Assembly: GCA_016840855.1 (NCBI GenBank)
Contig: JAEORO010000090.1
Span: 1-15,041 of the forward strand
Direction of reading: 5' to 3'
From: Candidatus Thorarchaeota archaeon
Lineage (GTDB): Archaea > Asgardarchaeota > Thorarchaeia > Thorarchaeales > Thorarchaeaceae
Length of the DNA: 15,041 nt
The position numbers and the translations under genes are program-made. Shown here one piece after another: positions 1 through 15,041 of the stretch (its first letter is position 1; every line of letters begins with the position of its first letter). The notes below the pieces were generated by a model. It worked only from the letters and a program-made list of their open reading frames with translations. It was not told the origin of the DNA and did not search any database.

Positions 1-5
1 ATAGC

Positions 6-974
6 TCAAGTAGTCGAGATTCCTAACTTCTCAACCATTTCCTTGTAGCGATTTCTCACGGTGACCTCAGTCACACGTGCAGTTCGAGCAATCTCAAGTT
101 GGGTCCGTCTAGCACCTGTAAGAATGCTAGCAACATAGATTGCTGCAGCCGCCATTCCTTTGGGATCCTTACCAATGGTAAGTCTTTGTTCCCTCGCTAA
201 CTCCAAGATATCAATGGCCTTTTTCTTCGCCTCACCTGGAAGTTCCAGTTCTGTGCCAAATCGGTGAACAAATTCGGCAGGGTTGCTATGGGGTATCTTT
301 AGATTAAGATACCGAAGAATGAGTCGAACGCAAAGGCTGAGTTCCTTCCGCGTAATGTGTATCTGTTCAACAATTTCCTCAAGCGGGCGTGGAACCTGGT
401 GCACACGACAGGCAAGGTAAAGCGAGGCTGCTATCATCCCTAGAATAGTACGACCACGGGTCAGCCTTTTTCTCAAGGCTTTCCTGTAAATCACGGCGGA
501 GGTCTCTCGAATTGAATAGGGGATACTCAACTGAGAGCTAATTCTATGAAGCTCAGTCATCGCAACAGCTAGGTTGCGTTTGTCAGAAGAGTGCACTTTG
601 GTTCGAATTTGCCATTTCCTAAGTCTGTGAATCTCTGCTCTTCGAGTTGAAGTCAGTTTTCTTCCGGATGCGTCAACATTCTGTCGACCAATAGTAGTAG
701 TTAGACCTTGGTCAAACTTGCTCCAGTCTGTAGGACCTCCTACACGCTGTCGAGCATTTTGCTCATCTGATGTAAAGGCCCTCCATTCTGGCCCCATATC
801 TATGGAACGGTCTGAAAGAACAAGTCCGCAACTAGAACAAATAACTTCTCCACGAGTGTGGTCGATATATACATCCACACAGCTGCAGGCATTACAGACA
901 TAGCTGGCCGAACCAATGGGCTCTCTCTTTTTTTGGGTCTTTGAGTGTCTGCTGGCCAGTCCAATCATCTCCAT
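6..974 (-). CDS. tfb: Transcription initiation factor IIB (archaeal TFB)
   Basis: N-terminal Zn ribbon (CNAC...GEVICSSCGLV), B-reader GPEWRAF, RLRKWQ linker and two cyclin repeats ending GKDPKGMAAAAIY...RTQLEIARTARVTEVTVRNRYKE. Exact start is uncertain because an SD-like GGAGATGA overlaps the first codons. Confidence 0.97.
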   Translation of the reverse strand: MEMIGLASRHSKTQKKREPIGSASYVCNACSCVDVYIDHTRGEVICSSCGLVLSDRSIDMGPEWRAFTSDEQNARQRVGGPTDWSKFDQGLTTTIGRQNVDASGRKLTSTRRAEIHRLRKWQIRTKVHSSDKRNLAVAMTELHRISSQLSIPYSIRETSAVIYRKALRKRLTRGRTILGMIAASLYLACRVHQVPRPLEEIVEQIHITRKELSLCVRLILRYLNLKIPHSNPAEFVHRFGTELELPGEAKKKAIDILELAREQRLTIGKDPKGMAAAAIYVASILTGARRTQLEIARTARVTEVTVRNRYKEMVEKLGISTT

Positions 975-1100
975 GCAGGCTCACTCTGCGAGTGACACTG
1001 CGGTCAGAGCTGTGAGTAGATCGAATGCATCGACTCCCTCTGGCGCGAAGGAGTCCTTGTCATTTGTGGCGCAAGTGATTCGTCCAACGGGAGAACGAAC
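975..1100 (-). other. Structured GC-richer 5' leader (or small ncRNA) upstream of tfb
   Basis: Several inverted repeats: 1032-1055 (minus strand GACTCCTTC-gcgcca-GAGGGAGTC, 9 bp with one G-U), 1079-1099 (TTCGT/ACGAA) and 980-1016 (CTCAC/GTGAG enclosing CTCTG/CAGAG). Confidence 0.4.
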
Positions 1101-1122
1101 AGGAATGCCCACACAAAAATGA

Positions 1123-1136
1123 ATATAAAGCCTTTG
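1123..1136 (-). promoter_or_regulatory. Putative BRE/TATA promoter for tfb
   Basis: Minus strand reads CAAAGGCTTTATAT(T): a purine-rich BRE-like segment followed by TTTATA, at the edge of the AT-rich divergent intergenic region about 150 nt upstream of the tfb ATG. Confidence 0.5.
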
Positions 1137-1359
1137 TAAATTAATCAAATAATTCTTTGTTTAATTGATGTATATATTAGATGTTTTAATCTTGGTTTTA
1201 TTTGATGTATAAGTTTTGAAAAGCAGCTGCGAAACTATATCCCATCTTGAAACTACTACTGTTTCTAGGTCGGTTTGGGCGGACTGAAATCAACCCCTAT
1301 GTCTGAGCGTTTCATTTATGAAGATTCGTTGATGATTCTCTCCTGTATATTGGTGAGAT

Positions 1360-3270
1360 GTGTTGACAACGATTTCATCTAATCCTTGGAAAACTGCTAG
1401 ACAGTCAATAGTGAGATTGCTGTCTGAAGTATTTTCAGTCCCTCCTGAAATCGTTGCGGAATCTATCGAGATACCTCCAGATTCAGCATTGGGAGACCTT
1501 GCATCAACAATTGCATTTTCTCTTGCAAAGAAGCTTAAGAAGAGTCCAGTCGCAGTCGTCAATGAATTTCAGCTCAAGTTGGAAGCTCAATCAAAACGGG
1601 AACCAATAATCAAAGAAATCACAACCAAAGGACCATACATCAACATCTTCATTGACCATGGACAGATGGCAAAGTTGACAGTTGAGAGCGTTCTTGATTT
1701 AAGTGAATCATATGGACATAGCCAGGAATTTGAAGGTATGAGAGCATTGGTTGAGTATCCCGCAGTTAATCCCTCAAAACCTTGGCATATTGGTCATGCA
1801 AGAAACGCAATTCTAGGAGATACCCTTTGCAACATTCTTGACTGGGTCGGATATGATGTAATCCGACTCGATTATGTGAATGACTTAGGTCTTCAGATTG
1901 CACAACTAATTTGGAAACTTATGCAGATTGATGACCAGGATACAGAAGCAAAGTATGATCATTACTTGGGACATTTGTATGTTGATGTACAGAGCGCATT
2001 TGACACTAGTGAATTGGTTCAAGAAGAGGTCAGGGAAGTTTCCAGAAAACTGGAAAATCTTGATAGTAAAGAAGCCATGCTGAGCTCTAAAATGGTGACT
2101 CGATGTCTTAATGCGCAAAATGAAACATCGTATCGACTTGGCATCTATCACGATTATCAGGTGTGGGAAAGCGCGATTGCACATAGTGGCATTCTAGAAT
2201 TGGCTCAGAAAATGATGTTGAAATCAAAGAATATCTTGAAACTGAATGAAGGCGAGAAAGCAGGTTGCATAGTTGTGGATCTATCGGTGATTGATGAGTT
2301 CAAGGACATGAAGGATCCTTTCAAAGTCTTATTCAGATCTGATGGTACAAGGACGTACACGGGTGCTGATGTTGCGCTTCAACTCTGGAAATTTGGAATA
2401 ATTGAAGACCCATTCAAGTACTCGCTATTTGAAAATCAACCAAATGGAAAGCCAGTCATGCGAACTGATCTCAAAGGTAAGACAGCGAGTTTGGGTAAGT
2501 TTGATATCGTGATGAATGTCATTGGGTCTGAACAAGCGCATCCTCAAAGGATGGTATATACTATCTTGGATATTCTTGGATATTCCAAAGAGAGTGAAAA
2601 TTCACATCACATTGCATACGAATTTGTAACGCTTGAAGATACTGAGTTCTCTGGTAGACATGGGACATGGATTGGGTATTCGACCGATGATGTTCTCGAT
2701 AAAGCAACAGAGCTTGCTAAGATTGAAGTCGAAAAGAGAAATCCAGACGAAGATGATGCATTCAAAAACATCGTAGCAAATCAGGTGGGTGTTGGAGCTG
2801 TGCGTTATTTTATGCTCAATGCCTCACCAGATAGAAAAATCACATTCAGGTGGAACGAAGCTCTTGATTTCAATGGTGATGCAGCCCCATATCTCCAGTA
2901 CTCATATGCAAGAGCCCAAAGGATACTAGAGAAAGCAGAGAATGAATCTAAAGAAAAGATTGACCTAAAGCTTCTATCAACTGATGCCGAGTTTGCTCTG
3001 GTTAAAGCAATCGCGCAGCTACCAGAAGAAATCCTCGAGGTTGCTAGATCTCTGAAAAAGAATGTATGGGGTACTAGTTTCAATGCCAATAGAATCACAG
3101 CATATACATATAGTTTGGCTTATCTGTTTAGCAAATTCTATGATTCATGTCCAGTACTAAAAGCAGAGCCAGAGATTAGAGCATCAAGGTTAGCACTTGT
3201 ACATGTCTTTAAGATTACAATGGCTAACTGTTTAACAGTCTTGGGCATACCCATTGTCGACCGTATGTAG
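1360..3270 (+). CDS. argS: Arginine--tRNA ligase
   Basis: Class I HIGH motif in VEYPAVNPSKPWHIGHARNAILGD, plus GDLAS, RSDGTRTY, FSGRHG, GDAAPYLQYSYARA and the C-terminal LGIPIVDRM typical of ArgRS. SD GGTGAG lies upstream; start is GTG 1360 or TTG 1363. Confidence 0.98.
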   Translation: MLTTISSNPWKTARQSIVRLLSEVFSVPPEIVAESIEIPPDSALGDLASTIAFSLAKKLKKSPVAVVNEFQLKLEAQSKREPIIKEITTKGPYINIFIDHGQMAKLTVESVLDLSESYGHSQEFEGMRALVEYPAVNPSKPWHIGHARNAILGDTLCNILDWVGYDVIRLDYVNDLGLQIAQLIWKLMQIDDQDTEAKYDHYLGHLYVDVQSAFDTSELVQEEVREVSRKLENLDSKEAMLSSKMVTRCLNAQNETSYRLGIYHDYQVWESAIAHSGILELAQKMMLKSKNILKLNEGEKAGCIVVDLSVIDEFKDMKDPFKVLFRSDGTRTYTGADVALQLWKFGIIEDPFKYSLFENQPNGKPVMRTDLKGKTASLGKFDIVMNVIGSEQAHPQRMVYTILDILGYSKESENSHHIAYEFVTLEDTEFSGRHGTWIGYSTDDVLDKATELAKIEVEKRNPDEDDAFKNIVANQVGVGAVRYFMLNASPDRKITFRWNEALDFNGDAAPYLQYSYARAQRILEKAENESKEKIDLKLLSTDAEFALVKAIAQLPEEILEVARSLKKNVWGTSFNANRITAYTYSLAYLFSKFYDSCPVLKAEPEIRASRLALVHVFKITMANCLTVLGIPIVDRM

Positions 3271-3271
3271 T

Positions 3272-4621
3272 CTATCCTGAAGTGACAGTGGCGTTCTCTA
3301 CAACAAATGAAGGAGTTATCATGGCAAGCGTGGTCTTGGAGTCGTCACCGATTCGACCAATCCTCTTTAACAAGTCAAGCATGTTTATTCCAACAAGTGT
3401 ATTCTTGAGTGGATGCTGGATCTCACCCCTTTCGATGTAGAAACCCTCGTAGAGCATTGCACTGAGATCACCGGTTGTCATGTTGGGTCTATCGGCCGTG
3501 TTCCTACAAAGAACGCCCCGGTCTATCTCTGAAATTATGTCATCTAGATTTCCTCGTCCTGGTTTAATAATGAAGTTCGAGGTGGAGATTGAGGGGAGCC
3601 CTGAGTACGATGGTCTGCTAGCATTACCAGTATTTACCACATCATCTTTGAATGCAGTATAGGAGTTGTGAAGCAAGCCTTTTAGAACACCCTTTTCAAT
3701 TATCGAGGTTCGTTGCGAGGGGACCCCTTCTGCATCAAAGGATCGTGAACCAAGTCCTGCTGTTAATAGACCGTCATCAATTATATCGAGATTCTCTGAT
3801 GCAATAGAGGCACCGATTGAATCTGCAATGTAGGAACGTCCCTTCTGAACCTCCTCCGCACTCACTGCGCCTGCAAACCCATATCCTATGACGGTCCCGC
3901 CGCCAAGTGGAGCAAAGACCACTGGCATCTCACCGCCTTCGATGGTCTTTGGTCCCAGCATACTGAGAGTCAACTCAGCTGCATTTTTACCAACTTGTTC
4001 TGGATCAATCTCATTTAGGTTTCGAGTGAATTGATAATCATAACTTGTTGTTTGGTCATCTGCTCCTTTAACAACAGGCGAAGAAGAAAGGAAGATGGAG
4101 GTTCTTGGCTCCGAGAACGAAATGCCTAGAGAATTCACAACAGCGCTAATACCAGAAGAACTCTGAACACCAGCTGCTATGGCATACTTGCGGCCTTCAA
4201 GGACTTGTTTCGACGCATCTATTATTCTAATTATCGTTTCTGCAATTGTTTCTGAAGGAAGTTCAGCAATGTTCTTGTCAAAGAGACCATTCACTTTGGG
4301 ATGCGAGTTACTGTTAGATGGAAGACTCACAAAGTCGGGATCTGGAAAAGAAGCTTTCGCGAGCTTAACTGATTTTCTGACCGCCTCATGCACATCCTCC
4401 TTGGAGAGCGTAGTTACAAACGCAAAACCGATTCTTTTGCCTATTACCGTTCGAATACCTATACCAGCGTCACGTTTCTCTTCTGCGTTTCTAATAGCTG
4501 AGTTTTCAGCTTCAATAGCAAAAGAGCGAAACTGCCCCACATACGCTTCAGCCTGAGATGCTCCAAATTTCTCAGCTATCTTAACAGCAGATTCCGCTAT
4601 CTCGAGGAGATTTTCCTCCAT
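3272..4621 (-). CDS. pmbA: TldD/PmbA family protein, non-catalytic PmbA/TldE-type subunit
   Basis: GIGIR...GKRIGFA, FDAEGVP, IIEKGVLKGLLHN and TGNASR motifs, with no HExxxH. Start moved from the ORF-track 4660 to ATG 4621 (MEENLL), which follows GGAGGT and lies 1 nt after the tldD stop. Confidence 0.92.
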   Translation of the reverse strand: MEENLLEIAESAVKIAEKFGASQAEAYVGQFRSFAIEAENSAIRNAEEKRDAGIGIRTVIGKRIGFAFVTTLSKEDVHEAVRKSVKLAKASFPDPDFVSLPSNSNSHPKVNGLFDKNIAELPSETIAETIIRIIDASKQVLEGRKYAIAAGVQSSSGISAVVNSLGISFSEPRTSIFLSSSPVVKGADDQTTSYDYQFTRNLNEIDPEQVGKNAAELTLSMLGPKTIEGGEMPVVFAPLGGGTVIGYGFAGAVSAEEVQKGRSYIADSIGASIASENLDIIDDGLLTAGLGSRSFDAEGVPSQRTSIIEKGVLKGLLHNSYTAFKDDVVNTGNASRPSYSGLPSISTSNFIIKPGRGNLDDIISEIDRGVLCRNTADRPNMTTGDLSAMLYEGFYIERGEIQHPLKNTLVGINMLDLLKRIGRIGDDSKTTLAMITPSFVVENATVTSG

Positions 4622-4622
4622 T

Positions 4623-6008
4623 TCACATACCTCCCACAGGCACTTGCCTGATTCGTGCATGAGGACCTCCAGTCATGGTTGGAACACTCTGTCCATCCTT
4701 TCCGCAAGTTCCTCCTTCCAATTCAAAATCTTTCCCGATGGCGTCAATCTTTGCCAATATTTCTAGGATGTTCCCAGCAAGCGATACATCTCGAACCATA
4801 GTACCTTTCTCGCCATTATGAATTAGATATCCGTGACTAGCTTGGAACATGAATTGTCCTTTTGCTGATTGTGTATAGCCATAATTGAAACTGCACAGAA
4901 GTATGCCATTCTTTGTGTCTTCAATTAGTTCATCTACAGCCCAGTCCTTTGGTTCCATGAAGGTGTTGCTCATTCGTGGAAGAGGGATATGCATGTATGA
5001 CTGAGCTCTTGCGGCACCGTTCGGTTGTTGTTCCAACCGACTTGAAGTTTCCAAACTGTGAAGTAGGTCTGTCAAAACACCATTCTTCACCAAGCACCTT
5101 TTCTTTGTTTCAGTGCCTTCCCAGTCATATTCCGTGGAACCTCTCATTCCAGGCAAAGTTGGATCATCACTAATGCTGAGATATTCAGGACCAACTTCTT
5201 TGCTTACCATGTCTTCAAGCACTGTTGAATGAGCTGGCCAATTATCAGCTTCGGTGGCATGGCCAAAAGCTTCATGGGTTACGACACCATTAAGGGCCGG
5301 GTCCAATACAACATCGTATATCCCTCCTTCAGCCATTTTTGATGATAAGAGCTCGATAGCGAGTTGAGCAGCTTTGGCACCAATGTTTTGCGCCGCTTCA
5401 GTTTCCATTTCTTCGAATCCACTCCGAAGACTTATAGACTGTTGAGTTCGTTGTCTGTTCGGACCTTCTTTTGCTGTCGGAACGGAAATAATGCGAGGGA
5501 TTGAATTTTGGAGATAGATTTGTGTTCCTAAGGAATTTGCAATGAGAAGTTCTGAAGTCAGTTCTCCATATATCGTCCGGGTTGATACGATTCGCTCGTC
5601 AAAATCGCGCGCTTGATCATCAATCATTTTAACAAACTGCATCTTTTCATCAATTGAAACACTTTCGAATGGTTTTTTCACATTCAGAATGACTTTGTCC
5701 TCAAAGACTGGACCATCAATTGTAAATCGCTCTGCAACTTTCTCTTGAGTGGCAATGGCAAGTTTCGCTACTGATTCGCCAGTTGTTCTCATCCCGTCAG
5801 GGGTTAAGTTTGTCGTCTGAGCAAATGCCCAAGCCCCATCAATGAATGCACGGATTCCAGCACCTTTCATTCGAGATGCCATAGATTGTCTTGTGATGCC
5901 ATCATTGAGTTCGATGATTGTTGTGGTTGAGTTTTCTATTCGCACATCAGCGAATGTGACTCCAGTTTTAATAGCTGCATCAAGGGCTGCCTGAGCAAGG
6001 TCTTCCAT
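4623..6008 (-). CDS. tldD: TldD family metalloprotease, catalytic subunit
   Basis: HEAFGHATEAD metal-binding motif, DDPT, YDWEG, NGAARA, PRMSNT and the C-terminal CGKDGQSVP...GGPH. Start moved from 6122 to ATG 6008 (MEDLAQ), where family similarity begins, after GGGGA. Confidence 0.95.
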   Translation of the reverse strand: MEDLAQAALDAAIKTGVTFADVRIENSTTTIIELNDGITRQSMASRMKGAGIRAFIDGAWAFAQTTNLTPDGMRTTGESVAKLAIATQEKVAERFTIDGPVFEDKVILNVKKPFESVSIDEKMQFVKMIDDQARDFDERIVSTRTIYGELTSELLIANSLGTQIYLQNSIPRIISVPTAKEGPNRQRTQQSISLRSGFEEMETEAAQNIGAKAAQLAIELLSSKMAEGGIYDVVLDPALNGVVTHEAFGHATEADNWPAHSTVLEDMVSKEVGPEYLSISDDPTLPGMRGSTEYDWEGTETKKRCLVKNGVLTDLLHSLETSSRLEQQPNGAARAQSYMHIPLPRMSNTFMEPKDWAVDELIEDTKNGILLCSFNYGYTQSAKGQFMFQASHGYLIHNGEKGTMVRDVSLAGNILEILAKIDAIGKDFELEGGTCGKDGQSVPTMTGGPHARIRQVPVGGM

Positions 6009-6174
6009 GAGTATCCCCTTTGAATTGAGCCTCAGGCAATTAAATTGGATATAACTGATATGGCCTGAACATTCTTTCGCAGCAAAGTTAGGCGATACCT
6101 GAATGTTTCCCGAATAATACACGGGTTATTCTTGGATAACTCCTCGATGTAAGTAGACTACCGGAGGTACTCAC

Positions 6175-7755
6175 TTGACAGAAGATTCCTCAGCTGGACA
6201 ATGTAAATCCTGCCAGTCGAACAGAGCGACACATATGTGTGAAGATTGTGGAGCGGCTTTATGTTCCGAATGCTTAGAATCAAGATCTAGTGAGTACACC
6301 GTCTGTAGTGAGTGCCATCATACACTTGGGACTCCAATACCTGGAGAAAAGTTCGAAGAGTGTCCACAATGTGAATCAAAGGAGTTGAGCAAGGGAAGAA
6401 AGACTGTCGACATCTGTCCAAGATGTCATTCGTCAAGGGTATCATTTCTTGAAGACCGAAGAAGATCCTTGGCATTAGACATGCGTCATGCAATCATGAC
6501 AGTTCAATATGGTCATACAAAGCTCAGAGAGTTCACAAACAAGCTCGCAGGGGTGAAGAGACTGCTTGTGTCTCTTAGGATGGCAAACTTCTTGCATTAT
6601 AAGTGGATAGAAGAAAAGATTGAGGCTATTCAGAATGAACTTCCAGCAATTAAGAATAGAATAGCCAGTCAGGCTGAAATCATAGCTAAGAGGATGGCTG
6701 CAGAAACAAAAGGGTACATTGACTACACCCAATGGAATCCGACCCAATTCCCATTCATTGAAGGAATCACCAATAGAATTACAGAAATGGGAATCCATTA
6801 CAAACAGAATGTCGATGAATCACTGGAGCCTTTGAGAAGCACACTAAAAGATGTCAGAAGGCAGCTCGATGGACTCGACTACTATAAGGGACAGTTTGCA
6901 TCATTCTATGAACACTGTCAACTTTCAGTAGGAGAACTCCCTGTCTGTGCACTTCCTGATATTAAGATTGCAGGAAGTGATTTTCTCAAGAATGACAAGG
7001 CTCTTGGAACTCTATTCATCACAAACAAAAGACTCCTTTTCATTGCAGAAACCGGACGAGTCAGGAAAAAAATGGATACAATCTTTGACTTTCCATTAAT
7101 CTACTTGAAATCAATTGAAGAAGACGGAAGATTGCGAAAACGCCTAGTCTTGAAACTAAAGCAAGGAGAGATTAGAGCAACCTGCTCAGACCAGACAAAG
7201 AGGGTTCTCCCAGATTATATCGAGATTGCACGAAAGTTCGAGAAATACATTCAGACAGATATGCAAAGAGTCAGAAAAATCGAACAAAACGAGGTCAGTA
7301 CAAGTGACGTGAGACTCAAGATTGAAGGAATGGTATATTCACTCCTCTCTACCAATGACCAGTTAGAATATGATGAAAATGCATCCTTAATGAAACCTGG
7401 TCCAAGACCTAGAATAGGGACCTGGGAATCAAGTCCTATTCGTCGTAATCCCTATGACAGCTACTACAGGAAACCTGAGTCATTTCGTGATGAGCTCGAC
7501 CGAGTAATTGGAAGATACGATCAGACACAGAATACTCCACCACCAATCTATGATGCAAGTCCTCGGATGCAATCATTACGTAGAGATGCAGTATCCATTG
7601 ATAATGCAATCAAAGATACGGTGCATATGCTTAGAAGTGGACAACTAATTGCTGAAGATTTCATTCGAAGATATAAAGATCTGATGAGAAACTCATATCA
7701 CAATAAACGTGAGATTGAACGCGTATCACGAGACAATCGTGACAATCTTTGGTAG
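6175..7755 (+). CDS. Multi-domain protein: six CxxC Zn-finger motifs, coiled coil, PH/GRAM/GLUE-like domain and C-terminal steadiness-box-like domain (putative ESCRT-I Vps23/37-like subunit)
   Basis: TTG start after SD GGAGGT. CxxC at aa 10, 22, 30, 44, 63 and 81; helical heptad-like aa ~92-245; GTLFITNKRLLF (aa 278) typical of GRAM/GLUE-type PH folds; C-terminal NAIKDTVHMLRSGQLIAEDFIRRYKDLMRNSY resembles the TSG101/Vps37 core hairpin. The CDS is secure; domain calls are by eye. Confidence 0.7.
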   Translation: MTEDSSAGQCKSCQSNRATHMCEDCGAALCSECLESRSSEYTVCSECHHTLGTPIPGEKFEECPQCESKELSKGRKTVDICPRCHSSRVSFLEDRRRSLALDMRHAIMTVQYGHTKLREFTNKLAGVKRLLVSLRMANFLHYKWIEEKIEAIQNELPAIKNRIASQAEIIAKRMAAETKGYIDYTQWNPTQFPFIEGITNRITEMGIHYKQNVDESLEPLRSTLKDVRRQLDGLDYYKGQFASFYEHCQLSVGELPVCALPDIKIAGSDFLKNDKALGTLFITNKRLLFIAETGRVRKKMDTIFDFPLIYLKSIEEDGRLRKRLVLKLKQGEIRATCSDQTKRVLPDYIEIARKFEKYIQTDMQRVRKIEQNEVSTSDVRLKIEGMVYSLLSTNDQLEYDENASLMKPGPRPRIGTWESSPIRRNPYDSYYRKPESFRDELDRVIGRYDQTQNTPPPIYDASPRMQSLRRDAVSIDNAIKDTVHMLRSGQLIAEDFIRRYKDLMRNSYHNKREIERVSRDNRDNLW

Positions 7756-7757
7756 CG

Positions 7758-8375
7758 TTACACACCAAGTTCTTTTTCTAAAGCCTTGATGTCTTCCTCA
7801 AGGGTCTCAGCTTCACCAACAGGTCTTGCAACTGTTGCAGCATCAGCTAATCCTGCTTCAGCATCAATCTCTTGAAAAGCAAAGCTGAGGTCTTCAGAAG
7901 ACACTTCCATTGTCGAGTCTAGTGCTTCGTCTGAGATACTAGCCTCAATCTCAAATTCCTCTAGGCGTCGAGCAATCTCATCCACATTAGCAACAAGTTT
8001 TGTAGCATCGGTCCCATCACCAAGCATTCCAAGGATTTTAGCAACTTCTTGAAGGGCTATCGACGTTTTTGCAGATGTCTGAGCACGATTCAGGTGAGCT
8101 AGAATCTTCAGTATCTGCAAACGCGATTTATCAACAGACAGAGCATATCTACGAAACCGTACCATCTCGGTAGCATATGTTCGATAAGCTTCCATTTGGC
8201 TACCTTTTCGTGCTCGGACTGCTCGTGCCTTTGCATCACGTTCTTCTTTTTCTAACTTGTTTCTTTGGCGCGCCAGTTGTTTTGATAGAATCCTGAGGCG
8301 ACTTGATATCTCACCGATGTCTGGTTTCTTTCTACCCCAAGAAAACGCCTTTCTAATTGAACCCAAGAATCTCAC
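7758..8375 (-). CDS. ESCRT-III (Snf7-domain) protein, Vps2/24/46 class
   Basis: Basic N-terminal helical hairpin (LRILSKQLARQRNKLEKEE...AYRTYATEMVRFRR, like Did2/Vps24), acidic C-terminal half, terminal amphipathic helix LEEDIKALEKEL (MIM1-like), and position next to Vps4. Start is GTG 8375 or TTG 8366. Confidence 0.92.
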   Translation of the reverse strand: MRFLGSIRKAFSWGRKKPDIGEISSRLRILSKQLARQRNKLEKEERDAKARAVRARKGSQMEAYRTYATEMVRFRRYALSVDKSRLQILKILAHLNRAQTSAKTSIALQEVAKILGMLGDGTDATKLVANVDEIARRLEEFEIEASISDEALDSTMEVSSEDLSFAFQEIDAEAGLADAATVARPVGEAETLEEDIKALEKELGV

Positions 8376-8518
8376 CTAATTCTAGGAGCTTTAGCTCCAT
8401 TCTCTCAAAGGGAAGATAGCGTTTAAACCTTCGCAGTTCGAAGATGATATCATGTATGTATATGCTGGGTATGACAGAAATTCTTAACACCTTTTGAACA
8501 GTGTTCACATGAACTCAC
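8376..8518. promoter_or_regulatory. Divergent promoter region between ESCRT-III and vps4
   Basis: 143-nt head-to-head gap with palindromic GTTTAAAC (8421-8428), GAAATTCTTAA about 30 nt before the vps4 ATG, and a small inverted repeat GGAGCT-tt-AGCTCC (8385-8398). Confidence 0.45.
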
Positions 8519-9736
8519 ATGGCGGATCGCGTTGATCATGGGCTGAAAGCATTGCTCACAAAGGCAATAGAGCTGGATCAGAGGGGTATGAAAAAAGATG
8601 CTTGCCAAGAGTATCTCAAGGCAAGTAAGATACTTATCAAATTATCAAACTCTGCAGCATTACCCTCTGTCAAAAAGCACTATCTTGACCGAGCTCAAGA
8701 ATGCGTAGACCGGGTAAGGTATCTCTCAGGAATCAAGAAGAAAACACAGGGACCTATAGATGGACTTGTTGTACCTCCAAAAATGGATATAGGCTCAGCA
8801 GAACCTGTTCCAATCCAAGAGACCTCAAAGGCAGATGTAGAGTTAGATGATGATGAAAAAAGACTCAGAGAGATGATATCTGACACCATCATCACTGAGC
8901 GACCGAAAATCAAGATGTCTGAAGTCGCAGGTCTAGGAGATGCAAAACAAGCAATTGATGATGCAATTTTGGCACCCATGAAACACCCAGAACTCTTCAA
9001 AGGAAAAGCACGTCAACCATGGCGGGGCATTCTTTTCTACGGACCTGCAGGTTGTGGTAAGACCCTTGTTGCCAAAGCTGTCGCTTCTGAGGTCAATGCT
9101 ACTTTCTTCAATGTTTCAGCTGCAAACATTGTAAGCAAATGGTTAGGAGAATCGGAAAGGCTAGTGATGAGTCTGTTTGAATTGGCTAGAAAGAACCAAC
9201 CGGCAATCATCTTCATTGATGAACTCGATTCCATTGGGGTTTCCAGATCAGGGGATGACGTGGGAGGTGAACGACGTCTGAAGACGCAGTTGCTTACAGA
9301 ACTGCAAGGATTAGCTAGCAATGAGGAAGACCGTATCACACTCATTGGAGCAACGAACCTCCCATGGGAATTGGATTTTGCTTTACGTTCAAGATTCGAA
9401 AAGAAAATTCATGTTCCTCTACCGGACAGGGAAGCCCGAACAAAGATTTTCGAAATTCATATGGATGATGTAGAAATTTCACCCACTGTTGAATATGAAG
9501 AGCTCGCGGATCTTACAGAGGGATATAGTGGAAGAGACATCAGTGTGGTCTGCCGTGAGGCTGCGATGGAGCCAATAAGGGATTTGCAGCGTTCAGGTAG
9601 AATGGATGATGAGCAGGAGATCCTTGATATTCGTCCTGTATCGAGAGATGATTTCCTATATGCGATAGAAAATATCCGTCCTGCAACTCCCCCAGAGGAT
9701 GTCAAACGATACATTGACTGGGCGGAGGGTTCCTAA
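8519..9736 (+). CDS. vps4: Vps4 AAA+ ATPase with N-terminal MIT domain
   Basis: MIT-like three-helix N-terminus (KAIELDQRGMKKDACQEY...YLDRAQE), PWRGILFYGPAGCGKT Walker A, SKWLGESERLV pore loop 1, IIFIDE Walker B, GATNLPWELD SRH and TEGYSGRDI. Located in an ESCRT context. Confidence 0.95.
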   Translation: MADRVDHGLKALLTKAIELDQRGMKKDACQEYLKASKILIKLSNSAALPSVKKHYLDRAQECVDRVRYLSGIKKKTQGPIDGLVVPPKMDIGSAEPVPIQETSKADVELDDDEKRLREMISDTIITERPKIKMSEVAGLGDAKQAIDDAILAPMKHPELFKGKARQPWRGILFYGPAGCGKTLVAKAVASEVNATFFNVSAANIVSKWLGESERLVMSLFELARKNQPAIIFIDELDSIGVSRSGDDVGGERRLKTQLLTELQGLASNEEDRITLIGATNLPWELDFALRSRFEKKIHVPLPDREARTKIFEIHMDDVEISPTVEYEELADLTEGYSGRDISVVCREAAMEPIRDLQRSGRMDDEQEILDIRPVSRDDFLYAIENIRPATPPEDVKRYIDWAEGS

Positions 9737-9739
9737 AGA

Positions 9740-10477
9740 TTGGGCGTTCGAGAGAGAAAGAGAGAGAAAGAAAAAACAAAGGAATCAGCAGAAACTATAG
9801 AACAGGAACCAAAGGAACCAAAATCAACTTTTGAGAATTCTAAGACCGAGGAAGTAGCACATAGTCCTGATGTTGTTTTGGAAATCACAGAATCAATTGG
9901 AATTGTAGAATCTGGGAACCATGAGGAAGCTACAGAAGAATCAATCGCAGAGGTTGTGATGACCGAACCAGAGTTCGTAATGCCAAGTTGGGGAGATATT
10001 GAGGAAACTGAATGGATGTATGGGATTCCAACAAGAGAAGACGACAAAGGACTTTGGGCAGGAGAATGGGCTGATTACATATTAGAATGGGCTGAGAGAA
10101 GAAAGGTACATGTGCTCTCAGTTGCTACTTTCATTAGTGAACCACCATTCAAAGACTTGAGAAACAAAGTTGATTCATTCAAAGCGATTTCTGAGGTCCT
10201 TATAGAGAAAGAAGTTGCTGAGTGGATAGATAAGAAAAAACGACAGCTTAGAGTCTATTGGCGACCTCTTGAGGATTGGGCAGATATCCTCTATCAATGG
10301 GCACTCAAAACAGGAAAGCTACGGCTTGATGTGAAGTCAATAGTCATTCAGGAAGTAGAAGAAGACTTTGCGAGTTTGCCAGAGAAAGATATACACATTG
10401 TACTAGCTTTAATGGTGAAGAAAGGGCAAGCCAGCTGGATTGATGAGAAGAAAGGTGCAATTCTAATCTCCACTTAG
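9740..10477 (+). CDS. vps25: ESCRT-II Vps25-like tandem winged-helix protein with acidic N-terminal extension
   Basis: EWADYILEWA, AEWIDKKKRQLRVYWRPLEDWADILYQWA and LALMVKKGQA match the Vps25 pattern (human LEWLDKSKSSFLIMWRRPEEWGKLIYQWV). Starts 3 nt after the vps4 stop. Confidence 0.88.
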   Translation: MGVRERKREKEKTKESAETIEQEPKEPKSTFENSKTEEVAHSPDVVLEITESIGIVESGNHEEATEESIAEVVMTEPEFVMPSWGDIEETEWMYGIPTREDDKGLWAGEWADYILEWAERRKVHVLSVATFISEPPFKDLRNKVDSFKAISEVLIEKEVAEWIDKKKRQLRVYWRPLEDWADILYQWALKTGKLRLDVKSIVIQEVEEDFASLPEKDIHIVLALMVKKGQASWIDEKKGAILIST

Positions 10478-10479
10478 CA

Positions 10480-11247
10480 TTAGAATGCGCTATTGTTTCT
10501 TGGATCAGAGCTATCACGAGCCCTGAGTCCAGGGAAATAGTATCGACCCCCTGTGGAAAAACGAATGTCTGCAACAGCCATGCCTGCATCAACTAAACTA
10601 GTTAATACTTGACGAGCGTGATCTTCAGACCATTTGAGCTGTAGAATGACTTCCTCCAAAGAAACATATCCTTTGGCAGCTGCTAGGTTAATCACATCAG
10701 CTTGATCTCTGCGTAGTTCAAGTGGTCGAAGTTCAACGACCTTCACCCCACCTCTGAGAGTTCGAATACCAGGGATGAGACCATTATCAGCCAAACGATT
10801 GACTGATTCTATTACATCATTGTATGTCACAGATTCAAGCTCTGGAAGACGTCTAACAACCTCAACAATCAGCTCAGCCAGCCCCATGATCCCCTTTGAC
10901 GAATGTTCTGTTGCTACATCAAGTATTGCTAGACCGATATAATCGTAGAATTGGTCTAATGTCATGCCTTGGAGTGATCGTCGTGGAGCATGATTAGTAA
11001 GACGGAGCATGTTTGAGGCTTCAGGAAACACTTCGATAATTCGTTCAGATGATACAAAAGTGCCAATATCAAGACCCATCCTTCGCATGTTCTCAATTTG
11101 TGAACGAACATCGTGTAAGAGAGCTGTTGACTCTCTTTGATATGATCGAATATCCACTGCGCCAAGATCATAGAGCTTCTTCAATTGATCAAGAGTAGCA
11201 ATCGAAGCATAGAGTTCCGAATGAAGTCGCTCGTGCATTGGATACAT
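10480..11247 (-). CDS. Vps22/Vps36 (EAP30)-like ESCRT-II subunit with a fused N-terminal Vps28-N-like domain
   Basis: aa ~98-242 (FYDYIGLAILDV...PLELRRDQADVINLAAAKGYVSLEEVILQLKWSEDHARQVLTSLVDAGMAVAD...YYFPGL) aligns by eye with SNF8/Vps22. aa ~4-82 (SELYASIATLDQLKKLY...SYQRESTALL...FPEASNMLR) resembles the Vps28 N-terminal core. Confidence 0.85.
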   Translation of the reverse strand: MYPMHERLHSELYASIATLDQLKKLYDLGAVDIRSYQRESTALLHDVRSQIENMRRMGLDIGTFVSSERIIEVFPEASNMLRLTNHAPRRSLQGMTLDQFYDYIGLAILDVATEHSSKGIMGLAELIVEVVRRLPELESVTYNDVIESVNRLADNGLIPGIRTLRGGVKVVELRPLELRRDQADVINLAAAKGYVSLEEVILQLKWSEDHARQVLTSLVDAGMAVADIRFSTGGRYYFPGLRARDSSDPRNNSAF

Positions 11248-11363
11248 TCCCTTTGTATTCTAATCCGCACTAGGTCGGTAATTGATGTTGAACTGCTAGT
11301 GCTTTAAGAGGGAGTATTATGAGATTATACATAACATCCAATAGGATCACGTAGAACATTGCT

Positions 11364-11375
11364 GAAACTTATATT
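11364..11375 (+). promoter_or_regulatory. Putative BRE/TATA for a leaderless YbjQ-family transcript
   Basis: GAAACTTATATT ends about 22 nt before ATG 11397, and there is no SD. This geometry is typical of archaeal leaderless mRNA. Confidence 0.55.
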
Positions 11376-11396
11376 CCTACATTTTCAACAAGACGT

Positions 11397-11735
11397 ATGA
11401 ACGAAGGAATTATAGTAGTAACACTACCACATTTACCAGGCTATAGAATCATTAGGATAATAGGGATTGTCCATGGACTAACAGTAAGAACTCGAGGCGT
11501 AGGTGGAAAGATTTCTGCTGGTATTTCTGGGATATTTGGAGGTGAAGTGCACTCCTACACTGAGGAATGTGAGAGGTCTAAAGCTGAAGCGTTGATGAGA
11601 CTGCAAGAGAATGCGCTACGCATGGGTGCCAATGCAGTAATTGGTGCAGACTTTGAAACAAGTGATATTCTCGCTGGGACTGCCACGGTTTTTTCAGCTT
11701 ACGGGACTGCGGCTATCGTAGAAGCTGAATACTAG
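11397..11735 (+). CDS. YbjQ/UPF0145 family putative heavy-metal-binding protein
   Basis: LPGYRIIRIIGIVHG, IFGGEVHSYT, ALRMGANAVIG and AYGTAA motifs; 112 aa. Confidence 0.93.
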   Translation: MNEGIIVVTLPHLPGYRIIRIIGIVHGLTVRTRGVGGKISAGISGIFGGEVHSYTEECERSKAEALMRLQENALRMGANAVIGADFETSDILAGTATVFSAYGTAAIVEAEY

Positions 11736-11863
11736 AACTCAGTGATGTGGTCCTTTGGAGTAATATGTAGCGAATTTCCATCAAAGATGCAGTCAATTCC
11801 TTGACGAGGATGCATTCTCGGCGAAACAGTACTCTCAGACTGGGCTTTGAGAGAGAATTTAAT

Positions 11864-13222
11864 TTAGGGTGTTAAACGATCTCGATCACGAGGTAGTAGA
11901 GTTACTTCTCTGATGTTTTCAATGCCCAGAAGTTGCATGGTCATCCGTTCGACACCAAGTCCCAACCCACCATGAGGTGGAGCACCATATTTGAATGGAT
12001 CAAGGTAGAATGAAAAATTATCGGGATTGAAGCCTTTTGCTTTGAATCTTTCAACAAGTAAATCATACAAATGGATACGTTGACTACCAGTTGTTATCTC
12101 CATCCCCTTGTAGGTTAGGTCAAAGCTCTCAGTCATACCTTCATCAGTCATACTTGGCATTGTGTATGCGGGTCTGAGCTCCAATGGATAATGAGTTATG
12201 AACACCATATCAGTGCCATACCTTTCTGGAAATATTTCTCCCAAAATACGTTCACATTCAGGGTCTAGGTCATCAGTGATTGAGAGGTTCTTACCAGCTT
12301 CGTTCACAAGATCAATTGCCTCTGCATATTTTATTCTCTTGAATGGTACTTTTGGAACAGCGAGGTCAACACCTAATAGCTCCAATTCAGCAGCAGCCTT
12401 CTTCTTGGTCATTTTAAATGAATGATGAAGCATGTTTTCCTCCATCTTCATGACATCTTCAACACCACTAATCCATGCCATCTCATAATCGAATGAAGTG
12501 TACTCATTGACATGACGCTTGGTGTTATGTTTCTCAGCTCTAAATACAGGTGCAATCTCATAGACTCGTCCAAAACCAGCGAGGAGCATCAACTGCTTGT
12601 AGAACTGTGGACTCTGAGCGAGGTATGCTTTCCTCTCGAAGTACTTAACCTCGAATAAATTGGCTCCGCCTTCTGTAGCTTCAGCGACGAGTTTAGGTGT
12701 GTGTATCTCAACAAAGTCGTTGTCTTCTAAAAATGCTCTTGCGTAACGAACAAGGCTATGTTGAACCTTGAAGATGGCATTGACTGATGGTTTTCTGAGG
12801 TCGAGAACTCTATAGTTGAGTCTTGTGTCAAGATCAACGTCAGTTCTTCCTTCAACAACATCTATAGGAAGTCGTTCAGACGTGTTCAAGATTCGTATTT
12901 TCAGTGGAATCACTTCAGCACCGGAAGCAACTTGATTTGTGGCAACAACTTTACCAGTGACTGCAACTGCAGTTTCAGGCTTTAAGTTTCCAGAGGTAAC
13001 GAAGACATCCTTTGACACTTTCTTTTCAGGAATAGTGACTTGGACAGTTCCACGCTCATCTCTTAGAACGAGGAACTTGATTTTACCCTTGTCACGGAGT
13101 ATGTGAGTCCATCCCATTAAGACCACTTCAGTCCCTGCTAATTCAGCGGTAATTTGATCACTGAAGTGCGTTCGAACTTCTTCACCAATTTGTTCAGTGC
13201 CTGCAGCTTTATAGAAATCCAT
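11864..13222 (-). CDS. aspS: Aspartate--tRNA ligase, archaeal type (probably non-discriminating)
   Basis: OB-fold GWTHILRDKGKIKFLVLRD, RVLDLR, ATEGGANLF, LAQSPQFYKQ, motif 2 FRAEKHNTKRH and motif 3 GAPPHGGLGLGVER...PRDRDRLTP. Confidence 0.97.
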   Translation of the reverse strand: MDFYKAAGTEQIGEEVRTHFSDQITAELAGTEVVLMGWTHILRDKGKIKFLVLRDERGTVQVTIPEKKVSKDVFVTSGNLKPETAVAVTGKVVATNQVASGAEVIPLKIRILNTSERLPIDVVEGRTDVDLDTRLNYRVLDLRKPSVNAIFKVQHSLVRYARAFLEDNDFVEIHTPKLVAEATEGGANLFEVKYFERKAYLAQSPQFYKQLMLLAGFGRVYEIAPVFRAEKHNTKRHVNEYTSFDYEMAWISGVEDVMKMEENMLHHSFKMTKKKAAAELELLGVDLAVPKVPFKRIKYAEAIDLVNEAGKNLSITDDLDPECERILGEIFPERYGTDMVFITHYPLELRPAYTMPSMTDEGMTESFDLTYKGMEITTGSQRIHLYDLLVERFKAKGFNPDNFSFYLDPFKYGAPPHGGLGLGVERMTMQLLGIENIREVTLLPRDRDRLTP

Positions 13223-13302
13223 CCTTCATGCCTCAGTCTAAGTTCAATCTGCAGAAACGCGAGTACATTATGAGGCTTTTGGAACCATTAAGATTACGAG
13301 TT

Positions 13303-13338
13303 GAAGATGGTCTGGGAAATTTCCCAGAATCCACCTTC
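13303..13338 (-). repeat. Intergenic inverted repeat with a perfect 18-bp palindromic core (hairpin or operator)
   Basis: TCTGGGAAATTTCCCAGA (13311-13328) is its own reverse complement. The flanks GAAGATGG and CCACCTTC extend the stem, with a G-U pair on the minus strand. Confidence 0.8.
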
Positions 13339-13354
13339 TAGATCACTGTTCCCA

Positions 13355-13588
13355 TTACATGGGCGCTCGAACCAGCTCGTAGACCCGCTCCCTCGCGTCG
13401 TTCTCATGTTCTTCTTCCCGAATGAGACCTAGAGCCTTTAATCTACTAAGACCATAGTTCACTGTTCTAGGAGGAAGGTATGTGTTGCTAATTAGGTCTT
13501 GCCGGGACATTCGTCGCCGGTTCTTAAGCAGCACATATAGGAACTTCGCAGAAGGAGGTAGAGACAAGAATGAGCGTCTGGCAAACAT
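13355..13588 (-). CDS. Small winged-HTH (MarR/TrmB-like) transcriptional regulator
   Basis: LPPSAKFLYVLL...LPPRTVNYGLSRLKALGLI...DARERVYEL matches the widespread archaeal 'LPPSAK...DARQ' wHTH family. SD-like AGGTGGGA lies upstream. Confidence 0.85.
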   Translation of the reverse strand: MFARRSFLSLPPSAKFLYVLLKNRRRMSRQDLISNTYLPPRTVNYGLSRLKALGLIREEEHENDARERVYELVRAPM

Positions 13589-13695
13589 GATCCCACCTTA
13601 GAATTGTAACCATGTGTTTAATACCTCCGTATGATTTTCGTTTTCAGATACATATCAACAAATAAGAGTTGGCATTTCGGTGATTACAGGTTAAT

Positions 13696-14967
13696 TCAGT
13701 GTGTAGGCACATGCTGTTCAGTCGCAGGCATACTCGGTCGCTCATTGACCTGCCAAAAGTCTACTATCTTTTTCAATAGTTCAGTGATTCCTTGGCCAGT
13801 TATTGTTGAGGTTTCAATAAAGAAGAGTGGATGAGATTGACCATTCTCACCTAGAGATTTTGCGACCTCATCGCAATATTTGCGAGCTTCCTCTGTTGAA
13901 ACGGGAATATCGATTTCATCATCCTCATCATCATAGACTGGGTGATCACGTAAATCAGTCTTGTTCCCGACAATAATTATCGGAGGAGGAATCAAGAAAG
14001 CATTGGATAGTTCACGCACCCAGAAGTCGAGACTGTCAAAGCTCCATCTATCAGCTACTGAATACACAAGTACTGCAATCCCTGATCCTGTGTAGAACTC
14101 TGTTTTGGGTATTTTTGCCTCCATACTCTTCGGGAATGTCCATGCATCAACTCGAACATTTGACCCGTTATGTTCAATGATGTTGCTGAAGGTGAATGGC
14201 TTGGTGGGGGATAAGTCAAGAGAAGAGTAGTCATTTCCAAGCTTCAGATTACATTCAAAGATTATACTATTAACCCCAACTCCTTCCTCTCCAAGGAATA
14301 AGACTTTGAGATCCAATAAGTCTGAGATTGCCTCAGGTGAAGATTTCGCTTCTTCAGAAACATCTTCTAATGACGCTACAATCTCAGGTTCGTCCCAAAG
14401 GAATTTCACTGGTCTATCTGTGTCAGATGATTGTGTACGGGGTGTAGGAGTGCTTTCTGGAATATTCTCTGCATGGAAGGAATACACTAAGCCTTTGACT
14501 TCCTCACTTAGTGGGACATCCCAGATACTCATTGTCTGTGGGGCGGGAGTGTCTGTCTTTAGATCTTCAAGCTGATCTTCAAGCTGGTCTTCAAATTCAG
14601 GCGTTGCGACTATTACATTACTTTTGATCTCGTCAGAGATTTTAATTTTGCCAGTGGGAGAGAGGAATTCATCTTTTAAGCTATCAAGAGTGTTCAAAGC
14701 GCGTGAGAGTTCCAGCAAATCTTCCTTTGTTAACTCATCCTCTCCAGGAATCAAATCAACCTCGGGGAGTCCAACTCTTTTCAAAATGAACTTCAGAATC
14801 GGGTGAGGGACATTGAATCCGCGCAAATACGCAAATCGTTGCACCTCATCCATGATGTCTTTGAAGGATTTACCAGCAAACGTAAGTCTTCGAGTAACAG
14901 CGGGGTCCTTAATGTAGATACGATTGACCTTGAGACTTATGTCGATATTTGTCCCTGGGATTTGCAT
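13696..14967 (-). CDS. Protein with an uncharacterised N-terminal domain, an acidic linker and a C-terminal degenerate Rab/Ras-like small GTPase domain
   Basis: From aa ~219: LKVLFLGEEGVGVNS (G1-like), FYTGSGIAVLVYSVADRWSF, PIIIVGNKTDL (G4) and FIETSTITGQGITELL (G5). Confidence 0.88.
   Translation of the reverse strand: MQIPGTNIDISLKVNRIYIKDPAVTRRLTFAGKSFKDIMDEVQRFAYLRGFNVPHPILKFILKRVGLPEVDLIPGEDELTKEDLLELSRALNTLDSLKDEFLSPTGKIKISDEIKSNVIVATPEFEDQLEDQLEDLKTDTPAPQTMSIWDVPLSEEVKGLVYSFHAENIPESTPTPRTQSSDTDRPVKFLWDEPEIVASLEDVSEEAKSSPEAISDLLDLKVLFLGEEGVGVNSIIFECNLKLGNDYSSLDLSPTKPFTFSNIIEHNGSNVRVDAWTFPKSMEAKIPKTEFYTGSGIAVLVYSVADRWSFDSLDFWVRELSNAFLIPPPIIIVGNKTDLRDHPVYDDEDDEIDIPVSTEEARKYCDEVAKSLGENGQSHPLFFIETSTITGQGITELLKKIVDFWQVNERPSMPATEQHVPTH
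14563..14594. repeat. In-frame 12-nt tandem repeat (~2.7 copies) encoding EDQLEDQLED
   Basis: ATCTTCAAGCTG ATCTTCAAGCTG GTCTTCAA, within the linker of the GTPase-like gene. Confidence 0.75.
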
Positions 14968-15023
14968 CTTACGACAACCACGCCTTCCTCTTCATAAGTA
15001 ATTATATGAGGTATGAATAATTA

Positions 15024-15041
15024 CTATTTTTATATATTAAA
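15024..15041 (-). promoter_or_regulatory. Putative TATA element for the GTPase-like gene
   Basis: Minus strand TTTAATATATAAAAATAG, 60-75 nt upstream of ATG 14967; truncated by the window edge. Confidence 0.4.

Follow-up and report, generated by a model that had tools for sequence, protein, structure and literature searches.

The DNA analysed here, called the window below, is a stretch of 15,041 nucleotides from Candidatus Thorarchaeota archaeon (GenBank assembly GCA_016840855.1, contig JAEORO010000090.1, positions 1 to 15,041 of the forward strand). It carries a gene encoding a chimeric protein, in which a Vps28 N-terminal domain is joined to the winged helices of Vps22, in a cluster with the genes for Vps25, Vps4 and an ESCRT-III subunit, listed in Table 1; the grouping of a Vps22 gene with these three recurs at other Asgard loci. 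The Vps25 encoded here has an acidic N-terminal extension of about 100 amino acids. The source assembly is of the metagenome type and consists of 259 contigs, with a contamination of 6.3%.

Table 1. Genes and protein domains of the ESCRT cluster, with their positions in the window.
Feature	Positions	Strand	Remarks
Thorarchaeal Vps28N-Vps22 fusion, whole ORF	10480..11247	-	255 aa; stop codon 10480-10482
Vps28 N-terminal (headpiece/steadiness-box) domain	10993..11241	-	Residues about 3-85; hhalign, VIA, Foldseek, model
Junction/linker	10960..10992	-	Residues about 86-96; sequence variable across the family, low model confidence
Vps22-type tandem winged-helix domains	10525..10959	-	Residues about 97-241; phmmer, Pfam, Foldseek, hhalign
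Vps25 (ESCRT-II)	9740..10477	+	Pfam ESCRT-II PF05871, 59.1 bits; convergent with the fusion gene
Vps4 AAA ATPase (MIT, AAA, Vps4_C)	8519..9736	+	Pfam
ESCRT-III (Snf7 family) subunit	7758..8375	-	Pfam Snf7, 38.9 bits
Zn-ribbon/coiled-coil/PH protein, 526 aa	6175..7755	+	Conserved C-terminal helical hairpin; Znr_CC_PH_SB-like architecture

Translation of the fusion gene probably starts at the ATG at 11238, which gives a protein of 252 amino acids, since most homologues begin three residues later than the longest reading frame. Residue numbers given below are those of the 255-aa frame. The closest database relatives of the protein are Thorarchaeota, as judged from their source names. In the structural model, the N-terminal domain consists of a hairpin of two helices (residues 3-27 and 33-56) and, after it, three shorter ones (61-67, 70-73 and 75-81). 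The string SELYASIATLDQLKK...NMLR, quoted as residues 4-82 in the original prediction from the letters alone, is present and ends at residue 82 as claimed, but it starts at residue 10 rather than 4 (residue 7 when counted from the ATG at 11238). The short linker that had been expected near 10960-11000 does fall there, and its residues 86-93 have pLDDT values below 50 in the AF2 model of the whole protein.

The part following the linker is a Vps22-type tandem of winged helices, in agreement with the original prediction. Pfam EAP30 (PF04157) matches residues 69-227 with 52.3 bits (cut-off 26.8), and human SNF8 (3cuq_A, 2zme_A) aligns to residues 97-241 with an E-value of about 1e-15 when the protein is compared with solved structures by phmmer. 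By hhalign, a profile made from 16 canonical Vps22 sequences, Asgard and eukaryote-like, matches the fusion family with an E-value of 2.7e-42, the alignment running from residue 67 on. In a phmmer search of 1.84 billion representatives, the matches to canonical Vps22 start at about residue 97. The AF2 model of the whole protein (pLDDT 77.5) has two winged helices past residue 97, for which Foldseek finds Vps22 and Vps36 chains (3CUQ, 2ZME, 1U5T) as the best matches, the rest being generic winged-helix proteins. The E-values are 1.9e-9 for 3cuq_A and 7.3e-7 for 1u5t_A, with a TM-score of about 0.3, which is low because the orientations of the domains differ. The canonical N-terminal helical domain of Vps22, corresponding to positions 1 to about 75 of the EAP30 profile, is absent: the Pfam match opens at profile position 75. 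Other Asgard Vps22 proteins cover this profile from position 1 or 2.

What, then, stands in place of these helices? The original prediction took residues from about 1 to 85 for the N-terminal domain of Vps28, and both sequence and fold bear this out. By hhalign, the profile of the fusion family matches eight Asgard Vps28 proteins over residues 3-85 with a probability of 99.0% and an E-value of 2.6e-18; three of the eight were scanned with Pfam, and all three lie above the VPS28 cut-off across the whole profile. A full-length Asgard Vps28, P0247 (252 aa; Pfam VPS28 E-value 2.3e-11, profile positions 2-186 of 188), aligns with residues 8-86 at 37% identity and an E-value of 4.6e-6 in the phmmer search of 1.84 billion representatives, and with the fusion at 1e-14 in a pairwise BLASTP comparison. 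The likeness of the N-terminal domain to Vps28 is far beyond chance. The Pfam VPS28 profile (PF03997) itself gives 14.8 bits on the fusion alone (residues 10-66, aligned to positions 2-60 of the 188 in the profile), below its cut-off of 24.5, and this match was set aside as a stand-alone proof. The homologous fusion from a sister family (L011) lies above both cut-offs, with 55.4 bits for EAP30 and 26.9 bits for VPS28. When the N-terminal domain was compared with PDB sequences by phmmer, the solved Vps28 chains had E-values of 1.3-1.4, the alignment with yeast Vps28 (2f66_B; query residues 10-59, E-value 1.3) being not significant. The top row of this comparison, a SNAP-25/alpha-SNAP chimera with an E-value of 0.0088, was rejected as a match of helical composition.

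Since Foldseek with the model of the whole protein shows winged helices only, residues 1-95 were folded separately (pLDDT 85, pTM 0.73). Among 48,161 chains compared by VIA-align, the highest score belongs to 6vme_E, which we take to be VPS28 (Z 11.9 over 81 residues, at an rmsd of 2.2 Å); 2caz_E follows at Z 9.7 and the chain after it at Z 8.3, with CdvA at Z 7.8 and Vps23 hairpins at Z 7.5-7.6 over about 60 residues; all of these scores fall below about 13, a range that can be generic among helical folds. In Foldseek, the best dozen or so of the rows listed (ranks 1-10 and 12) are all chains of the ESCRT-I headpiece or core, with TM-scores of 0.51-0.71 and weak E-values of 0.15-1.1. The chains 2caz_B, 2f6m_B, 2f66_B and 2p22_B are annotated as Vps28. 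Structure prediction, which had been proposed as a check on the domain assignment, is in its favor, the best structural matches being solved Vps28 N-domain chains. In this Thorarchaeota genome, the canonical N-terminal helices of Vps22 are replaced by the headpiece domain of Vps28. As had also been predicted, the reading frame has no C-terminal four-helix bundle of Vps28: Pfam, the model and hhalign all show winged helices after the linker, and in Pfam and the model the winged-helix tandem makes up the rest of the chain. The fusion protein is a carrier of the Vps28 N-terminal domain, not a Vps28.

In eukaryotes, the N-terminal domain of Vps28 packs against the hairpins of Vps23 and Vps37, its C-terminal four-helix bundle contacts ESCRT-II, and the N-terminal helical domain of Vps22 packs against Vps36. 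The Thorarchaeota fusion probably hard-wires these two membrane-sorting complexes, in a way that can be outlined as follows. The winged helices would, by homology, bind Vps25, which would in turn recruit ESCRT-III and Vps4, all three being encoded next door. The hairpin of the Vps28 N-terminal domain is predicted to pack on the C-terminal hairpin of the Zn-ribbon/PH protein, just as Vps28-N packs on Vps23-C in the eukaryotic headpiece. A membrane- or cargo-binding stalk resembling ESCRT-I would thereby be wired covalently to ESCRT-II, dispensing with the non-covalent contact made by the Vps28 C-terminal domain.

A controlled complex prediction suggests that the N-terminal domain may bind this adjacent hairpin. 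With residues 440-526 of the Zn-ribbon/PH protein and residues 1-95 of the fusion, the score was 0.84, compared with 0.02 for the highest of three controls; this mark is attained by 58 solved complexes out of 80 and by 2 of 110 mismatched pairs, and the score could stem from a resemblance to solved Vps23-C:Vps28-N structures rather than from binding of these particular copies. The runs agreed in at least 98% of contacts, with a pLDDT of at least 83 for the partner, and the predicted interface lies between residues 483-512 of the Zn-ribbon/PH protein (window 7621-7710) and residues 2-43 of the fusion. The gene of the putative partner is conserved and syntenic, and its C-terminal hairpin is highly conserved. 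The own matches of this C-terminus (hhalign to Vps28, 8.7%; yeast Vps23 chains, E-values of 0.6-1.0) are too weak to count as an identification of a steadiness box. The Vps23_core profile (PF09454) has a best E-value of 0.74 in the window's own genome; it misses even the C-terminal hairpin of this neighbor and is uninformative. Two-hybrid contacts between a free-standing steadiness-box protein and a "Vps28" have been described for Loki- and Thorarchaeota in the text of Hatano et al. (2022; PMC9192718).

Alternatively, the hairpin might serve mainly for self-association of Vps22, taking the place of the lost canonical helices, with no bridge to an ESCRT-I-like partner. This is rather unlikely, though it has some foundation: steadiness-box hairpins are oligomerization modules by nature, and the text of Hatano et al. 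(2022; PMC9192718) reports a self-interaction for Vps22 of Thorarchaeota and places one dimer contact of a Heimdall Vps22 at residues 41-47, within the N-terminal helical region. Against it stand the heteromeric prediction with the neighbor's hairpin, which scored 0.84 where the best control reached 0.02, and the conservation and synteny of the partner gene. Self-association and bridging could also coexist. Another Vps22-like protein has to be considered in this connection. The same genome encodes a protein of about 780 amino acids (contig C53) that ends in a Vps22/36-type module of helices and winged helices and matches canonical Vps22 by hhalign with a probability of 99.8% and an E-value of 1.2e-29 over columns 41-258; among the matches listed, such a long paralogue is found in most genomes of the order. 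As a paralogue with the canonical helices is retained, the fusion did not simply replace all of the canonical Vps22 function.

Could the N-terminal 85 residues instead be the ordinary Vps22 helices, the likeness to Vps28 being that of any helical hairpin? The length of the region would fit, as query residue 97 pairs with residue 93 of human SNF8 in the phmmer alignment, so that the 96 amino acids in front of the winged helices are as many as in SNF8, and helical hairpins do score middling in structural comparisons with many proteins. However, canonical Vps22 aligns from residue 67 only, whereas Vps28 covers residues 3-85, and the Vps28 profile matches the canonical Vps22 profile with a probability of only 0.3% in a control by hhalign. 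Moreover, the rows that Foldseek and VIA list for the N-terminal domain model include no chain of Vps22 or Vps36, and these same residues find Vps28 proteins in other families of the phylum. This objection, which had been anticipated in the original prediction, fails, and we regard it as very improbable.

Across the phylum, residues 1-95 match 209 of 400 genomes. Among the matches listed, most of those in the window's family fall in reading frames of some 250-320 aa, a few shorter ones being truncated, and most of those in other families fall in frames of some 205-235 aa or some 470 aa. Eight loci were examined: seven encode a Vps28 with its C-terminal domain, in one case (L014) as a UEV-Vps23-Vps28 fusion of 468 aa, and the eighth, from a sister family within the order, has the window's fusion, with the junction at the same place (alignment A1). 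The survey of Asgard lineages that had been suggested as a check thus finds, among the matches listed, the fused form in the window's order only (families f1, the window's own, and f2, the sister family) and a separate Vps28 with a C-terminal domain in others.

Does a Vps28 C-terminal domain persist elsewhere in these genomes? A profile of this domain finds it in 236 of the 400 genomes of the phylum and in none of 86 genomes of the window's family; in the phylum-wide run it finds none in 85 genomes of f1, in the single genome of f2 or in the single genome of a further family, f3. The profile was built from seven Asgard Vps28 C-terminal domains, all from outside Thorarchaeota, so that a very divergent domain could escape it, and its reach is such that distant matches with E-values of 1e-4 to 1e-10 are included. 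The rows of the profile came from seven of the 236 positive genomes, which makes the positive control independent only in part. A separate Vps28 was also sought in the window's own genome with P0247 as the query, which finds the fusion gene alone. A 413-aa coiled-coil frame on contig C110, the best match to PF03997 in this genome (E-value 0.0016), is not a Vps28, with an hhalign probability of 0.2%. The original prediction held that the covalent link removes the need for the C-terminal domain. The survey, with no match in 86 genomes of the family and matches in 236 of the 400 phylum genomes, fits this claim, while physical bridging itself stays at the level of a prediction. The fusion argues that the Vps28 C-terminal domain is mainly a tether, replaceable by a peptide bond.

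The gene order in other Asgard archaea suggests how the fusion might have arisen. At all seven non-Thorarchaeota loci, vps28 lies upstream of a canonical vps22 on the same strand, with a gap of less than 500 nt at six loci and of less than 100 nt at four (about 5-65 nt at these four, about 330 and 450 nt at two, and 1.7 kb at one). A convergent Vps25-Vps4 pair like that of the window is found at three of the seven and at the fusion locus of the sister family. The fusion gene occupies the place where other Asgard archaea have vps28 followed by canonical vps22. Because vps28 precedes vps22 at every one of the seven loci, the fusion looks like the product of an in-frame deletion: a single event between the two adjacent, co-directional genes, from the end of the Vps28 N-terminal domain to the first winged helix of Vps22, would yield the observed length and order of domains and would have removed both the C-terminal bundle of Vps28 and the N-terminal helices of Vps22. 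The fusion looks like a derived, lineage-specific state of one order.

The opposite polarity, in which an ancestral fusion was later split into Vps28 and Vps22 in eukaryotes and in other Asgard archaea, draws on general Rosetta-stone logic only, with nothing specific to this case. Among the matches listed, the fused form is seen in f1 and f2 alone, and in the other matching families Vps28 is a protein of its own and retains the C-terminal domain. In addition, a split needs two independent gains, of the C-terminal bundle of Vps28 and of the N-terminal helices of Vps22, whereas a single deletion between neighboring genes suffices for the Thorarchaeota state. An ancestral fusion is therefore hardly probable. 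The original prediction saw the fusion as relevant to ESCRT evolution; as a clue to the ancestral state it is not borne out, since, as what looks like a derived simplification within one order, it tells nothing about the machinery ancestral to that of eukaryotes.

The fusion is conserved throughout the order. Database searches list at least 120 clusters at 62-100% identity to it; among the clusters listed, 117 of 120 cover at least 92% of the query, and the other three, which are short fragments, cover 77-86%. When the whole protein served as the query, a single contiguous match over both domains is found in 77 of the 87 genomes of the order, that is, in 76 genomes of the window's family, its own genome included, and in the sister family's one genome. 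Fragments occur in four further genomes (G363, G373, G378 and, in three pieces, G334). The remaining six, with completeness values of 62-93%, comprise five with the longer paralogue only and one without any match.

The stretch is present in sequencing runs of six studies. The junction was checked on assembled contigs of two other runs from two other studies: a contig of 973 nt from run X7 spans 10536-11400 and a contig of 472 nt from run X8 spans 10575-11046, both including the junction and both without a difference from the window. Run X2 has no contig across 10633-11002, and such a hole proves nothing. A second, co-occurring strain (runs X2 and X8) differs by 16 nucleotide changes within the N-terminal domain, of which 14 are silent and two conservative (T41A and S67T). 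A metatranscriptome contig of 156 nt (11078-11233) was rejected as evidence of expression, as DNA can occur in such libraries. An assembly chimera or a mis-called frame, the former having been named in the original prediction as a possible pitfall, can be dismissed as extremely improbable, given independent contigs across the junction at about 10960-10992, substitutions that are mostly synonymous in frame, and the same architecture in 77 of 87 genomes.

Taken as a whole, the observed architecture together with a deletion origin and a bridging function is, in our judgment, quite likely the right explanation of this gene. As a Rosetta-stone case, the fusion speaks for a direct working contact between Vps28 and Vps22 in Asgard archaea. 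It also offers a biochemical handle on the archaeal link between an ESCRT-I-like complex and ESCRT-II, for which two or three small soluble proteins suffice. We know of no full Vps36 in Asgard archaea. Available passages of two reports describe Thorarchaeia as lacking UEV-Vps23 (preprint 10.1101/2023.07.25.550441) and Thorarchaeota as seemingly lacking ubiquitin (Hatano et al., 2022; PMC9192718). A wider and more tentative reading, to which we give somewhat less than even chances, is that Thorarchaeota have a collapsed, ubiquitin-independent ESCRT-I/II machine. In such a machine, a weld born of a deletion would have made the Vps28 C-terminal domain dispensable throughout the order, the Zn-ribbon/PH protein would provide the stalk, the contact to membrane or cargo and the partner hairpin in one, and the protein of about 780 aa would play the role of Vps36. 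If this is true, Thorarchaeota represent a natural experiment in which the contact of the Vps28 C-terminal domain with ESCRT-II turns out to be a tether only.

The architecture is already in the literature: the main text of Makarova et al. (2024, mBio 15:e00335-24, PMC10936438; preprint 10.1101/2024.02.06.579148) describes an Asgard Vps22 family, cog.002769 or "Vps22#", whose members carry a fused steadiness box, and the family name Znr_CC_PH_SB comes from the same paper. As far as that text describes them, Vps22# and the present fusion are alike in having a steadiness-box hairpin, then two winged helices, and an Asgard ESCRT neighborhood, and they show no difference in kind; the fusion almost certainly belongs to cog.002769. 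The finding is a correct rediscovery of a known architecture. On four points the available text of Makarova et al. (2024) is silent, although its Table S3 and Figs. 2 and 3C may cover them: the identity of the hairpin as a Vps28 N-terminal domain, its displacement of the canonical helices of Vps22, the restriction of the form to Thorarchaeota, and the lack of a Vps28 C-terminal domain there. Likewise, no main-text treatment of a Thorarchaeota-specific Vps28N-Vps22 form was found in the literature, and the supplements of Makarova et al. (2024) and Hatano et al. (2022) may hold one. The points added here are incremental: the order-wide absence of the Vps28 C-terminal domain, a deletion origin based on synteny, a controlled complex prediction with the neighboring hairpin protein, and a check of the junction on independent assembled contigs.

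Among the established families, the fusion shares with Vps28 (PF03997) the sequence and fold of the N-terminal domain, and it is predicted to pack on a partner hairpin as in Vps23-C:Vps28-N; Vps28 of eukaryotes and most Asgard archaea, however, continues into a C-terminal four-helix bundle, where the fusion has winged helices instead. With Vps22/SNF8/EAP30 (PF04157; 3CUQ, 2ZME, 1U5T) it has in common the tandem winged-helix core and the adjoining Vps25 and Vps4, but it is without the canonical N-terminal helical domain. A further likeness is to the UEV-Vps23-Vps28 fusion of Heimdallarchaeota, as described in the text of Hatano et al. (2022; PMC9192718), in which a Vps28 module is likewise in one chain with a neighboring ESCRT subunit. 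Judging from that description, the Heimdallarchaeota fusion stays within ESCRT-I and keeps the whole of Vps28 with its C-terminal domain, whereas the Thorarchaeota fusion crosses from ESCRT-I to ESCRT-II and has dropped that domain.

A second Vps22/36-like protein is encoded on another contig of the same genome (C53), and the last ~215 residues of this ~780-aa protein align to canonical Vps22 (hhalign 99.8%, E 1.2e-29), with the alignment taking in part of the N-terminal helical region and ~560 residues preceding the Vps22-like end. Paralogues of this type are present in most genomes of the order, among the matches listed, and the protein is a possible Vps36-like partner.

In f22, one family of the phylum, the Thorarchaeota Vps28 N-terminal domain (fusion residues 1-95) matched in none of the 135 genomes, and a profile of seven Asgard Vps28 C-terminal domains gave weak matches in 100 of them (E 1e-4 to 1e-10), in frames of about 212-260 aa. 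Two readings of the matching protein are possible: a Vps28 that has diverged, or one consisting of the C-terminal domain only.

For the stretch 11019-11191, which lies inside the part of the fusion gene encoding its N-terminal domain, two contig variants were found in each of the sequencing runs X2 and X8: one is identical to the window and the other differs at 16 positions, 14 of them silent. The samples of both runs contain a pair of closely related, co-occurring strains. In one family genome, G334, the fusion gene (G334:C13:104460-105193) appears broken up into three segments that are read in different frames, and it contains an in-frame TGA. Possible explanations are a frameshift in this copy, another disruption of it, or a fault in the assembly.

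Features of the window and of contig C53
Feature	Location	Strand	Basis or detail
PmbA/TldD-type metallopeptidase paralogue, one of tandem pair	3272-4660	-	
PmbA/TldD-type metallopeptidase paralogue, one of tandem pair	4623-6122	-	
526-aa Zn-ribbon/coiled-coil/PH protein	6175-7755	+	domain layout, Pfam
Vps25	9740-10477	+	Pfam match (ESCRT-II domain) from residue 109
423-aa protein with Ras/Roc-type small GTPase domain	13696-14967	-	domain at residues 221-402
Second Vps22/36-like protein, 782-aa frame	own genome contig C53, locus L004 1-2067	+	hhalign

Vps25 carries an acidic, probably disordered N-terminal extension of ~100 aa ahead of its ESCRT-II domain. The Ras/Roc-type GTPase gene lies near the ESCRT cluster, and a region of ~220 aa precedes the GTPase domain in its product. 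The ORFs of the PmbA/TldD-type pair overlap by 38 nt.

Many homologues of the Zn-ribbon/PH protein start 20 or 54 residues further in, and thus the TTG start codon of its ORF may be wrong. At its N-terminus are Zn ribbons, followed by a coiled coil and then a domain resembling bacterial PH domains, where residues 274-325 match Pfam bPH_3 weakly; the C-terminus is a hairpin that is very conserved. This is the architecture of the published Znr_CC_PH_SB family (Makarova et al., 2024; PMC10936438).
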